Origin: a virus
Taxonomy: Duplodnaviria > Heunggongvirae > Uroviricota > Caudoviricetes
DNA: 21,082 bases
Virus record (IMG/VR): IMGVR_UViG_2879759574_000006
Reading direction: 5' to 3' (one strand)
A program made the translations under genes and the position numbers. Under the pieces are notes generated by a model, which was not told the DNA's origin, ran no database searches, and saw only the letters and a list, made by a program, of their open reading frames with translations. Below are positions 8,343-15,905 of the stretch, in pieces. Each line of letters opens with the position of its first letter. Positions within the stretch are counted from its first letter, which is position 1.

Positions 8343-9095
8343 GGGACAGGCGTGTCATCAGCATGGAGCTTACCGTCAGTCAGCACATAATCCTGAAGCG
8401 CTTCTTCCAGCGGTGACAGTAGCCGGCAGCATGCATCCACCCAGCCCGACAGCAGTGAACGACTCAGCTCCACGCCCTGACGGCCGTACATTTCAGACTG
8501 GCGGTACAGCGGGGTGTGCTCTGCATACTTTGAGATCAGCACGCGGGCCAGCAGCCCCGGTCCTGCGATACCCCGCTCGATGGGCCGTGAAGGCGCGGGG
8601 GCCTGCACGATGGCATCGCACTGAGTACAGGCATGCTTTTCACGTACAGTCCGGATAACCCGGAAGACGCTGCGCATCAACTCCAGCTGTTCGGCGGCAT
8701 CCTCACCCGGATAGCTCAGTGAGCCTCCACATTCCGGGCAGCATGACGCTGCCGGCAGCAGCCGTTTTTCATCGCGGGGAGTGATTCGGGAACGGTTTGC
8801 GGGTGCGGGTTTGACGCAGCGGGCGCTGCACGGCCGGGTCGTCAACCCGACCGGTAAGGGTATCACTTTCTTTCTGAAGTGCCTTCAGGTCAGCTTCCAT
8901 CTGTGCGATACGACGGGAGACTTTTTAGGAGCGGCTGCCGAAGTTCATCCGGCGCAGCTTATCCAGCTGTGCCTGCAGATGGTCTATTTCGCGTTCACGC
9001 TCGTTCAGCTTTTCCAGCAGGGCACGGTTCAGCGCCTCCTGTTCGGCAAGGAGACGTTTCAGTGCATTGATATCGTCAGGAAGTGAGCTGCTCAT
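8343..9095 (-). pseudogene. tnpC: tnpC fragment of IS66 copy 2 (nonsense codon 57 and 3' truncation)
   Basis: Start codon at 9093-9095; GAA to TAA change at 8925-8927 relative to copy 1; coding sequence ends at the 8343 breakpoint. Confidence 0.8.
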
Positions 9096-9143
9096 ACCGG
9101 GTATATTACCAGGCTCATTCAGCGTCGACCAGGATAAAGAGGC

Positions 9144-9491
9144 TTACAACATAGTCAGGGACGTAAGCAGTCTTTTAGGCTGCCGCCAGTCGATACCTTC
9201 AAGGAGCATCGCCAGCTGTGCCGGTGTGAGGAACACTTTGCCATCCCGGGCTGACGGCCAGGCGAAGCGGCCGCGCTCCAGCCGTTTGGTCAGCAGACAC
9301 AGTCCATCGCCGGTAGACCAGAGGAGCTTTACCTGACTGCCATTACGCCCACGGAAGATAAAAACGTGACCTGACATCGGAGCGTCTTTCAGCGTCGTCT
9401 GCACCTTTGCCGCCAGGCCGTTGAAGCCATTTCTCATATCGGTGATACCGGCAACCAGCCAAATTTTGGTCCCGGAAGGTAACGGGATCAT
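9144..9491 (-). CDS. tnpB: IS66-family TnpB (orfB), copy 2
   Basis: 115 aa, one substitution relative to copy 1 (LKDAPMSG versus LKDDPMSG). Confidence 0.8.
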   Translation of the reverse strand: MIPLPSGTKIWLVAGITDMRNGFNGLAAKVQTTLKDAPMSGHVFIFRGRNGSQVKLLWSTGDGLCLLTKRLERGRFAWPSARDGKVFLTPAQLAMLLEGIDWRQPKRLLTSLTML

Positions 9492-9889
9492 CGCTTCAGT
9501 TCCTGTATCAGCAGAGTCAGGAGCTTTTCGCTGACATTGCCATTGAAGCGGAGCGTCCCGTGCCGGAACGTTACCTCACAGCTGATACTGAGGGTTTCCG
9601 GATCCTCTGCGAGCGATTCTGGCTGTTCGGCAGCTGCATCGAGAGTCACAGGAAGTAGCTGGGGGCTCTCTGAAGAAGGTAATAGCAGCTTTCCCTCGCG
9701 CCATTGTTGTCGCCATTTGAACAACAGATTGGCGCTAATGCCATTTTCAAGAGCAAGTTTTGAGATGGATATCCCGGGTTCACAGGAGGCAGCAACGAGC
9801 TGCTGTTTAAATTCGGGAGGATAATTAGGGCAGCCTTTTCGCCTGCCGGGATTCACATTTTTCTGCATATCTGACACTTTGGTTCCCAC
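9488..9889 (-). CDS. tnpA: IS66-family TnpA (orfA), copy 2
   Basis: 133 aa, one substitution relative to copy 1 (NGISANLL versus NGINANLL). Confidence 0.8.
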   Translation of the reverse strand: MGTKVSDMQKNVNPGRRKGCPNYPPEFKQQLVAASCEPGISISKLALENGISANLLFKWRQQWREGKLLLPSSESPQLLPVTLDAAAEQPESLAEDPETLSISCEVTFRHGTLRFNGNVSEKLLTLLIQELKR

Positions 9890-10018
9890 TACTTATTTGG
9901 TGGACACCACTTTGTCTAATTCGTCAGATTCTGACCAGACGGTTCAGGCTGTACGCTGATATGACTTTCCGTGTCAAACCGGAATCTCTAATTTTGACGA
10001 TTTTCTTTTTAGGTTTAA

Positions 10019-10210
10019 TTCCCTGAGGGCGACGTAGCAGTAAATCCGACGGTGAATCACGCTGATATTCGCGGGTTGGATACCGCATTACAGAGGTCCG
10101 TCATATGAGCCTGCCACTTTCTTACGTCGCGAATCAGCTTTGTTCCGCCGTCGCCAAGCGCTAACGTGGGTTACTCTTGTACCGGGCTACGTCGCCTTCA
10201 GGGAACTGGT
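10019..10210. repeat. pair of ~22-24 bp imperfect inverted repeats flanking ~145 bp, immediately 3' of the IS110-family recombinase stop codon
   Basis: ttaattccctgagggcgacgtagc (10019-10042) versus gctacgtcgccttcagggaactgg (10187-10210); about 2 mismatches in the 22-bp core. Confidence 0.5.
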
Positions 10211-10222
10211 TATTCTCATTTT

Positions 10223-13164: not shown

Positions 13165-13937
13165 CAGAAGAAGGAAAACAGGATGATGAAGAAAAACCGC
13201 AACCATCTTGCGCAATGGCAGATGAACAGGCAACGGCTGAAACAGTGGAACCGGATGCAACTGAACATCATCAGGACACGCAGCCGCTGGATGCTCAGTC
13301 ACAGGTAAATGCTGTTGATGCGAAATATCAGAAACTGCGGACAGAACTCCATGAAGCCCGGAAAAACATTCCGCCCAAAAATCCTGTCGATGCAGACAAA
13401 TTACTGGCTGCCTCTCGCGGAGAATTTGTTGAAGGGATTAGCGACCCGAATGATTCGAAATGGATTCCCGGTCATCATATCTCCTCAAATGAAGTCAAAA
13501 AAACGGAAAATGAAGTGCGACAGACTGAAGATAAACAGCACCAGAACAGCGAACCGGAGAAGGGAACACCCTGCAATCAGACTGGCGAGGATAACTGCCC
13601 TGACTGTGGCGCGGTGATGGGAGACGCAACTTATCAGGAAACTTTTGACGAAAAAAAACCAGATGAAGCACAGGAAGAAGAGCCGAAGAAAACGGAAAAA
13701 GCTGATGATTTGTTGCCGGAGAACGCTGGCAGCGATCAGCATAATGATAGCAATAATGAAACTGGCGAAGATGAACTCAACTGGAAAAAACAGGTGTTGA
13801 TTGCGGCGGTTTACGGTTTATGTGCGAATCCTGCGTGCATAGCCTATGCGCCTGCAATCCCTGGCATCGCAATGATGATTGCCAACAAGCTTGAAAATTT
13901 TGGAGTGACCAGTGATGAGCGCTTACCCGATTTTTGA
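13149..13937 (+). CDS. hypothetical highly acidic protein (262 aa) with a C-terminal hydrophobic segment
   Basis: ORF overlaps the upstream gene by 16 nt (possible coupling); alternative start at 13215; Asp/Glu/Gln-rich N-terminal two-thirds, then [33 protein letters not shown]; an out-of-frame ATG with a good RBS at 13183 makes the start uncertain. Confidence 0.5.
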
Positions 13938-14211
13938 TCGTATTGAAGAAATGGCATGGGCTCGTCACTACCAGCAGATCGTTCGTGAAGAAAAAGAAAC
14001 GGAACTGGCGGACGACCTGGAAAAAGGTCTGCCTCAGCACCTGTTTGAATCGCTCTGCATCGACCATTTGCAACGCCACGGTGCCAATAAACAGGCAATC
14101 AGCCACGCATTTGATGATGATGTTGAGTTTCAGGAGCGCATGGCAGAACACATCCGGTACATGGCTGAAACCATTGCCCACCACCAGGTTGATATTGATT
14201 TGGAGGACTAA
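13912..14211 (+). CDS. hypothetical small acidic protein (about 98 aa)
   Basis: GGAG at 13902-13905 about 9 nt upstream of ATG 13915 (track start GTG 13912); overlaps the upstream gene end; about 23 acidic versus 9 basic residues. Confidence 0.5.
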
Positions 14212-14271
14212 AATCTATGGCGCTTTTTCAACGAGCAATAAACACACAGGCCTATCTAAAAGCAGGAATTA

Positions 14272-14330
14272 TGAGGTAGCCTGAGTTTAACAGACACTCC
14301 TTCCTGAAATAGAATGGCATCAGAAGGAGC
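14272..14330 (+). mobile_element. orphan IS600 left-end fragment (first 59 bp), interrupted by IS66 copy 3
   Basis: tgaggtagcctgagtttaacagacactccttcctgaaatagaatggcatcagaaggagc matches the left end of the complete IS600 at 19762..19820 (reverse complement) with one mismatch. Confidence 0.75.
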
Positions 14331-14366
14331 GTAAGCGTGCAGCAAGAACCGTATTGACGGGATGTG

Positions 14367-15905
14367 TTATTCAGTCGGCAGTGCTACGCGCCAGGGGAGC
14401 AGTTCGCCGACCCGGTTTATCGGCCAGTCGGCTATGACGTCAAGGACATAGCGGAGGTAGCTTTCTGGCTCCACTCCGTTCAGTTTGCACGTCCCGATCA
14501 GGCTGTACAGCAGCGCTCCCCGCTCTCCTCCATGATCCGAACCGAAGAACAGGTAGTTTTTGCGGCCCAGACTGACCATCCGCAACGCATTTTCAGCGAT
14601 GTTATTGTCCGCCTCAGCCCAGCCATCATCTGCATAGTACGTCAGCGCCGGCCACTGGTTCAGGGCGTATGCGAACGCTTTCGCCAGTTCTGAGTGTCGC
14701 GACAGGGTTTTCATCTTTTCACGCAGCCAGCTTTCCAGGGATTTCAGCAGCGGTTTCGTTTTCAACTGACGTTCGGCAAGGCGCTGCTCCGCCGTCATTC
14801 CCCTTATCTCTGCCTCGATGGCGTACAGTTCGCCGATCCGTTTCAGCGCTTCCTCCGTCAGGGCTGACGGGGTGCGAACGTGCACATCGTGGATTTTACG
14901 GCGGGCGTGAGCCCAACAGGCGGCTTCCGTTATCCGGCCATCCCGGTACAGCTCGTTGAACCCGGCGTATGCATCCGCCTGCAGTACACCACTGAACCCC
15001 GCAAGATGGGTCTGCGGATGGATGCCTTTTCTGTCCGGGCTGTAAGCGAACCACACCGCCGGCGCCAGCGTTGACCCGGCGTTACGGTCGTCACGAACGT
15101 AGGTCCATAACCGCCCGGTCTTCGTTTTCTTATTGCCTGGCAACAGCACCGGGACAGGCGTGTCATCAGCATGGAGCTTACCGTCAGTCAGCACATAATC
15201 CTGAAGCGCTTCTTCCAGCGGTGACAGTAGCCGGCAGCATGCATCCACCCAGCCCGACAGCAGTGAACGACTCAGCTCCACGCCCTGGCGGCCGTACATT
15301 TCAGACTGGCGGTACAGCGGGGTGTGCTCTGCATACTTTGAGATCAGCACGCGGGCCAGCAGCCCCGGTCCTGCGATACCCCGCTCGATGGGCCGTGAAG
15401 GCGCGGGGGCCTGCACGATGGCATCGCACTGAGTACAGGCATGCTTTTCACGTACAGTCCGGATAACCCGGAAGACGCTGCGCATCAACTCCAGCTGTTC
15501 GGCGGCATCCTCACCCGGATAGCTCAGTGAGCCTCCACATTCCGGGCAGCATGACGCTGCCGGCAGCAGCCGTTTTTCATCGCGGGGGAGTGATTCGGGG
15601 AACGGTTTGCGGGTGCGGGTTTGACGCAGCGGGCGCTGCACGGCCGGGTCGTCAACCCGACCGGTAAGGGTATCACTTTCTTTCTGAAGTGCCTTCAGGT
15701 CAGCTTCCATCTGTGCGATACGACGGGAGACTTTTTAGGAGCGGCTGCCGAAGTTCATCCGGCGCAGCTTATCCAGCTGTGCCTGCAGATGGTCTATTTC
15801 GCGTTCACGCTCGTTCAGCTTTTCCAGCAGGGCACGGTTCAGCGCCTCCTGTTCGGCAAGGAGACGTTTCAGTGCATTGATATCGTCAGGAAGTGAGCTG
15901 CTCAT
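14367..15905 (-). pseudogene. tnpC: tnpC of IS66 copy 3 with nonsense mutation at codon 57
   Basis: Start codon at 15903-15905; TAA at 15735-15737 where copy 1 has GAA; the longest remaining ORF (14367..15710, 447 aa) starts at Met66. Confidence 0.8.

Follow-up and report, generated by a model that had tools for sequence, protein, structure and literature searches.

A nonsense codon common to two resident ISEc22 copies of Shigella dysenteriae: a probable case of gene conversion between insertion sequences

Introduction

Gene conversion among dispersed repeats is well established, as is the inactivation of a gene by sequence received from its pseudogene, the human CYP21A2 and CYP21A1P pair being one example. 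Where the repeats are copies of an insertion sequence (IS), ribosomal RNA operons or tuf genes, conversion is seen as a short tract of linked markers that has moved between copies while the flanking markers stay distinct. The IS considered here is ISEc22, of the IS66 family, which is present in three copies in a 21,082-nucleotide stretch of DNA (the window; virus record IMGVR_UViG_2879759574_000006) that an exact protein look-up identifies as part of the 4.59-Mb Shigella dysenteriae chromosome CP026842.1 (GCA_002950175.1), the setting being a degraded prophage. Two of these copies, copies 2 and 3, have the same stop codon in the transposase gene tnpC, and the marker states found here and in two sister chromosomes make it probable that the stop was passed by intragenomic gene conversion between ISEc22 copies already fixed at their present sites. 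Nothing in this differs in kind from the conversion of dispersed repeats described elsewhere, although the case is unusually clean in that orthologues in the sisters give a polarity to each change, and parallel changes in paralogous ISEc22 copies within one lineage are what is meant by the concerted evolution of dispersed repeats.

IS66-family elements have three open reading frames (ORFs), all of which are reportedly needed for transposition. The element in the window is ISEc22, a catalogued member of this family with ISEc8, IS679 and ISSfl3 among its relatives, and copies 1 and 3 match annotated ISEc22 from Shigella and E. coli records at 99.8-99.9% identity over about 2.44 kb and have its ORF layout, its termini and its DDE domains. 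Copy 1 (5350..7789, plus strand) is full length on the evidence of structure, alignment and Pfam, and has the family layout of tnpA (5421-5822), tnpB (5819-6166) and an intact tnpC (6215-7753, 512 amino acids) in that order, with a tnpA/tnpB overlap of 4 nt. Pfam assigns HTH_Tnp_1, TnpB_IS66 and DDE_Tnp_IS66 to the ORFs, and within the intact TnpC it places LZ_Tnp_IS66 at residues 39-110, zf-IS66 at 118-161, DDE_Tnp_IS66 at 175-461 and a C-terminal domain at 468-505 (PF03050 with E=7e-107, and PF13007, PF13005 and PF13817 each over cut-off). Copy 3 (14331..16770, minus strand) is likewise full length with both terminal repeats, and the termini of copies 1 and 3 are of the form GTAAGCG...CGCTTAC, with a left end GTAAGCGTACAGCC and a right end ...GCACGCTTAC.

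In both sister genomes (CP026823.1 and CP026825.1) a perfect 8-bp target duplication, GAAGGAGC, flanks copy 3, and these 8 nt close a stretch at 14272..14330 (plus strand) that represents the initial 59 nt of an IS600-like element into which copy 3 was inserted; the stretch forms an inverted repeat with 19762-19820. No 8-bp duplication is found in the window around copy 1 (5342-5349 compared with 7790-7797) or copy 3 (16771-16778 compared with 14323-14330), which is attributed to later rearrangements. Two of the copies depart from ISEc22 as catalogued, copy 3 by a private nonsense codon at residue 57 of TnpC and copy 2 by its reduction to a 1.6-kb 5' fragment.

The stop codon and the variants linked to it

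A first-pass annotation of this DNA had claimed that codon 57 of tnpC is GAA in copy 1 and TAA in copies 2 and 3, and base by base this is confirmed. The codon is GAA at 6383-6385 in copy 1 (base 6383 being G), and on the minus strand it is TAA at 8925-8927 in copy 2 (T at 8927) and at 15735-15737 in copy 3 (T at 15737). With sites numbered by their position in copy 1, copies 1 and 3 differ at just three places, 6383 (G/T), 6922 (C/T) and 7555 (A/C), of which the last two are synonymous and the first changes GAA to TAA. A second variant is thus common to copies 2 and 3, namely 6922T, which lies at 8390 in copy 2 and at 15198 in copy 3. The amino acid replacements reported for copy 2, asparagine to serine in TnpA and aspartate to alanine in TnpB, are both real and are N52S (at the 5575 equivalent) and D37A (at the 5928 equivalent). 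The changes at the 5575 and 6832 equivalents are private to copy 2, as are two 1-bp deletions in C-runs that may reflect errors of sequencing. A random substitution in copy 3 would match the state of copy 2 with p of about 1e-3, and because two such independent matches would have p of about 1e-6, the sharing between copies 2 and 3 is not put down to chance.

How common the TAA allele is among other ISEc22 copies was addressed with exact-match probes. A TAA 61-mer has no match in 5,426 complete E. coli genomes, in which the corresponding GAA 61-mer is found exactly in 315 records; the exact TAA probe is absent from 72,556 PLSDB plasmids, including Shigella virulence plasmids that carry ISEc22, and a TAA 41-mer has no match in either the GTDB species representatives or the JGI metagenomes. 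These E. coli, plasmid, GTDB and JGI DNA collections hold no Shigella chromosomes, and a gene (protein) index was used as a re-test. In the whole of that index the 447-amino-acid ORF that begins at Met66 of the interrupted tnpC is called on one contig only, the source contig. The 56-amino-acid peptide that precedes the stop occurs in 72 index blocks, and among the places examined (those of the 24 blocks whose contigs are longest) a real stop follows it only at the two sites in the window. The peptide was rejected as a sign of further TAA carriers, the other calls examined ending at a contig end or an N-gap, having G or GA as their next bases and coming from ISEc8-like relatives. G is the base at this site in every one of ten more chromosomal ISEc22 copies, which come from two other S. 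dysenteriae strains. A widespread or ancestral TAA allele was accordingly rejected, the exact-match probes having found none. From these searches GAA is read as the ancestral state and TAA as private to one assembly, in which it occurs exactly twice, with the caveat that IS copies are collapsed in draft short-read assemblies, where a minority allele would go unseen. The prevalence of TAA across copies, which the first-pass annotation had proposed to check, is thus low, with no occurrence beyond copies 2 and 3 in the collections searched.

Copy 2 as an immobile relic

Copy 2 had been counted as a full IS66 copy alongside the other two, and its truncation had been missed. It is a 1.6-kb relic (8342..9957, minus strand) that retains IS nucleotides 4-1621 only, with tnpA (9488-9889), tnpB (9144-9491) and the first ~252 codons of tnpC. 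The relic is truncated at 8342 by a second, different IS66-family element, whose terminal repeat GTAAGCGTAAACTG... (reading downward from 8342) adjoins it there. Of this second element the left 0.55 kb is present (7790..8341, minus strand, from NCBIfam IS66 TnpA matches), with a tnpA-like ORF at 7837-8256, and its own cut-off is the right end of copy 1. At the other extremity the junction sequences show the left terminal repeat of copy 2 split after nucleotide 3 by ISSso6 (9958..11476, minus strand), an element of the IS110 family by its matches and with a broken transposase reading frame, beyond which the detached first 3 nt of copy 2 are found at 11477-11479 (TAC on the plus strand). Because its right end is gone and its left end is split copy 2 is unable to transpose, and it is immobile under any supply of transposase.

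The frame of the ISSso6 transposase is broken in the two sister strains as well as here. ISSso6 sits between ISEc22 nucleotides 3 and 4 with CT at both joints (window 9953-11479), and the same ISEc22/ISSso6 junction is seen on the S. dysenteriae plasmid NZ_CP026809.1, where the outer flank is different. This suggests that ISSso6 may target the ISEc22 end site-specifically, as is expected of the RNA-guided recombinases of the IS110 family, with shared ancestry of the two junctions as the alternative.

Comparison with sister chromosomes

The sister chromosomes, CP026823.1 (L015) and CP026825.1 (L017), were found via an identical 388-amino-acid RecE fragment encoded between copies 2 and 3. Across all three ISEc22 copies both loci run colinear with the window, the 8342 joint at which copy 2 is truncated and the 14330 joint of IS600 with copy 3 being present in each, and in both sisters copy 3 is a pristine insertion into IS600. 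Allele states were confirmed by direct k-mer search. At site 6383 copy 1 has G in the window, in L015 and in L017, and copies 2 and 3 have T in the window and G in each sister. At site 6922 copy 1 has C and copy 2 has T in all three chromosomes, and copy 3 has T in the window and C in both L015 and L017. Because the sisters have the same junctions with GAA, both insertions and the mutilation of copy 2 are older than the stop codon, and the two copies were in place before the variant that they now share.

Since both insertions predate the mutation, neither mobilisation of a null element in trans nor segmental duplication accounts for the two occurrences of TAA, and both are effectively ruled out. 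The first of these, raised in the first-pass annotation, holds that a TAA-bearing ISEc22 was moved to its second site by TnpC made from intact copies. Such a source is abundant, an identical and intact 512-amino-acid TnpC being encoded by many copies in S. dysenteriae chromosomes (the statement that copy 1 encodes the only intact 512-amino-acid transposase is right for the window and wrong beyond it), and copy 3 keeps both terminal repeats as well as tnpA (16298-16699, minus strand) and tnpB (15954-16301, minus strand), both intact. The reported need for all three ORFs would also allow that a product which is lacking comes from another copy in trans. Yet both TAA copies stand at sites that hold GAA copies in two sisters, and the architecture of copy 2 is common to those sisters and so had deprived it of mobility before the mutation appeared. 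The two TAA copies also differ at markers 5575 and 5928, and a third TAA copy was not found in the source chromosome with the gene index. Spread of the null element by mobilisation in trans is thus contradicted, and is regarded as highly improbable.

Still less credence is given to a segmental duplication of a mutant block, or to two independent and identical G-to-T mutations. Copies 2 and 3 are in direct orientation and only 6.8 kb apart, an arrangement that would suit a duplication, but the homology stops exactly at the IS boundaries, the flanks differ at once, and the sisters already carry both copies. Independent mutation would have had to strike the same site with the same base and to bring with it the linked 6922T, for which the chance of ~1e-6 given above applies.

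Probable gene conversion between copies 2 and 3

The account favoured here is a non-reciprocal homologous recombination between copies 2 and 3 within one S. dysenteriae lineage. One G-to-T mutation would have come first, in one of the two copies, and a tract carrying the T would then have been transferred to the other. Such a tract would be at least 540 bp long (6383-6922) and at most ~1042 bp, its limits being set by marker 5928 on one side and by the end of the copy 2 homology at 6970 on the other. In the window copy 3 matches copy 2 at 6383T and 6922T and keeps its own states at 5575A and 5928A, which is to say that linked markers are common to the two copies and that the flanking markers 5575 and 5928 differ, as for a transferred tract, with the caveat that the internal 6832T of copy 2 was not transferred. 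Sites 5928 and 6383 occur in all four haplotypes among the copies examined, namely A-G, C-G, A-T (copy 3) and C-T (copy 2). Of the alternatives that had been left side by side, with none chosen, gene conversion is the one supported by the mosaic of markers and by orthology with the sisters, and segmental duplication is contradicted by differing flanks and by the presence of both copies in the sisters.

There are several points that weigh the other way. Within the tract as proposed, copy 2 has 6832T and a pair of 1-bp deletions, all three lacking in copy 3, and these must be either post-conversion changes, the outcome of patchy mismatch repair or, for the deletions, homopolymer errors. The linked 6922T is not unique to copy 2, since one of the ten other chromosomal copies (in L023) also has it. 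Because this strain has a rearrangement to the left of copy 3, a third, ectopic ISEc22 could have contributed to that copy, which makes the donor and the direction uncertain. The whole case depends on one long-read assembly, and homopolymer indel errors are numerous in its relatives. Lastly, the IS copies diverge from their orthologues by 0.1-0.2% against a unique-DNA background of ~0.07%, only slightly above it at about two-fold, and because this excess is small the argument rests on the pattern of the changes and not on their number.

Two further kinds of evidence were considered and set aside. An excess of IS substitutions over unique DNA was dropped as a sign of conversion, a difference of about two-fold not being decisive. 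The 1-bp deletions of copy 2, together with a C-run that is one base shorter after 7758 in copies 1 and 3, were abandoned as markers, these being C/G homopolymers that vary haphazardly among the assemblies.

The main rival to gene conversion is an artefact of assembly or polishing, in which the T would be genuine in one of the two copies at most, and perhaps in none, and would have been written into the other when a consensus was made for a multicopy repeat. Sporadic 1-bp deletions in C/G homopolymers do differ from copy to copy in the three related assemblies, the companion plasmid record CP026843.1 is GenBank-only and unannotated, and the allele is known from one assembly only. The key differences are, however, substitutions outside homopolymers, which are rare in long-read consensus. 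Misassigned reads would come mostly from the many GAA copies and would erase a minority T rather than create one, and the agreement of copies 2 and 3 at 6383 and 6922 while they stay distinct at 6832 and 5928 argues that the copies were resolved separately. An artefact is therefore considered unlikely, and gene conversion remains the preferred explanation of the shared stop. As to the homopolymers themselves, single-base deletions are seen at the 5645, 5837, 6520, 6532, 6711 and 7758 equivalents (in L015 and L017 copies and in copy 2 of the window), and many of the apparent frameshifts in these records, those of copy 2 included, may be unreal and of a kind typical of long-read consensus errors.

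Conversion of this sort may not be confined to a single event. At 7675 copies 1 (7675) and 3 (14445) both have C in the window and both have A in the two sisters, and in L017 copy 3 has 5928C with 6796T, the haplotype of other chromosomal copies. Because of these concerted states at 7675 and of the L017 copy 3 haplotype, ISEc22 copies appear to exchange sequence recurrently in these genomes.

Direction of transfer and the left flank of copy 3

For the direction of the transfer a slight preference is given to passage from the relic, copy 2, to the full-length copy 3, since copy 2 has T at 6922 in each of the three strains, as against a C in copy 3 of both sisters. The T at 6383 would then have arisen neutrally in a dead relic and would afterwards have inactivated tnpC of copy 3. 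Confidence in this direction is held low because of the private 6832T of copy 2, the occurrence of 6922T in L023 and the rearranged left flank of copy 3. If the direction is right, and the balance of the markers leans somewhat that way, a live element was killed by a neutral mutation received from a relic, and relics could act as sinks that speed the decay of an IS.

In the left flank of copy 3, 364 bp of the IS600 that in the sisters separates this copy from the neighbouring IS3-family element is replaced, in this strain only, by an 86-bp fragment of a phage integrase gene (16771..16856, entered without a strand). This fragment runs in the opposite sense to the prophage, has an IS end at either edge, and is bounded on both sides by rearrangement joints. 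A double recombination with an ectopic locus, or else successive inversions, is suggested, and an ectopic ISEc22 may have contributed to copy 3. A simple adjacent deletion was rejected as the source of the altered flank, the piece being inverted and the DNA beyond the neighbouring IS3-family element not being integrase, and the donor could not be settled from the differences inside the IS3-family element. The conclusion that the stop was acquired by copies already in place is unaffected by the flank rearrangement, because the site and architecture of copy 2 are ancestral and had GAA, and its T must have come by mutation in place or by conversion.

As ordinary repeat biology, and as a kind of event already known, the case has small documentary value, which lies in a copy-by-copy record of known polarity that ISEc22 copies of S. 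dysenteriae would exchange short tracts. It illustrates that a nonsense mutation may pass between fixed IS copies without transposition, and it offers a caution for IS genealogies, in which a shared lesion is not proof of common descent by transposition and in which dead relics may inactivate live copies. This is of relevance where sequence variants of an IS are used as strain markers in IS-rich pathogens.

Copy 3 after loss of tnpC

In copy 3 the stop divides tnpC into a 56-amino-acid ORF (15735-15905, minus strand) and the 447-amino-acid ORF from Met66 (14367-15710, minus strand). With its ends, tnpA and tnpB intact, copy 3 is now by its sequence a non-autonomous ISEc22, and the many intact copies of the genome might in principle supply what it lacks; no sign of later movement is seen. 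It resembles the non-autonomous derivatives of other insertion sequences (those like miniature inverted-repeat transposable elements, and defective IS) in having intact ends, in the loss of a full-length transposase and in the presence of intact copies in the same genome. It differs from them in that no movement is in evidence here and the lesion is found at pre-existing sites only.

The first-pass annotation had also considered that re-initiation at Met66 might yield a truncated protein with an inhibitory role. For such a protein the inhibitor of Tn5 is the closest model, being an N-terminally truncated transposase made from an internal start. Met66 lies 24 nt past the stop codon, and the 447-amino-acid ORF, which lacks the first 65 residues and is translatable in principle, would keep the zinc finger, the DDE core and the C-terminal domain, while the LZ_Tnp_IS66 match no longer scores. 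The LZ domain is encoded by an ORF of its own in the IS66-family elements of some Bacilli (PMC3971601). In contrast to the Tn5 inhibitor, this ORF results from an accidental stop, has no ribosome-binding site, no Shine-Dalgarno sequence being found upstream of Met66, and is not conserved but seen in a single strain. Only copy 3 could make the protein, the other carrier being a dead and truncated fragment, and an allele private to one assembly gives no sign of spread or selection. That the allele has been kept through a Met66 product which inhibits transposition is unsupported, and is most improbable. By analogy with Tn5, a TnpC from copy 3 that has lost the N-terminal part of the leucine-zipper region might poison the transposase of the intact copies and so put a brake on an expanded IS, an idea that is scarcely more than speculative.

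Other features of the locus

Around the ISEc22 copies lie genes for a PrpA-like phosphatase and an ipaH effector, fragments of phage tail-fibre genes, a split recE and gam, and the other elements nearby are IS600, ISSso6 and IS3-family elements. Copy 1 adjoins the truncated second IS66-family element at one end and phage tail-fibre DNA at the other, which indicates IS-mediated deletions or inversions that are common to the sister strains. The recE gene (exodeoxyribonuclease VIII, 11998-13937) is split into ORFs of 388 and 262 amino acids, and because identical split products are called in all three strains this is held to be a genuine common pseudogene and not a sequencing error.

Divergence from the sisters is uneven along the locus. 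In the phage tail-fibre region (3312-5349) there are 20 substitutions in 2 kb, as against 2 in 2.8 kb in the recE region, and the former may be a local recombination hotspot or may have taken part in an exchange with another prophage. The IS3-family element at 16857-18116 has 11 bp (17977-17987) that are missing from its orthologue in both sisters, together with one substitution at 17446.

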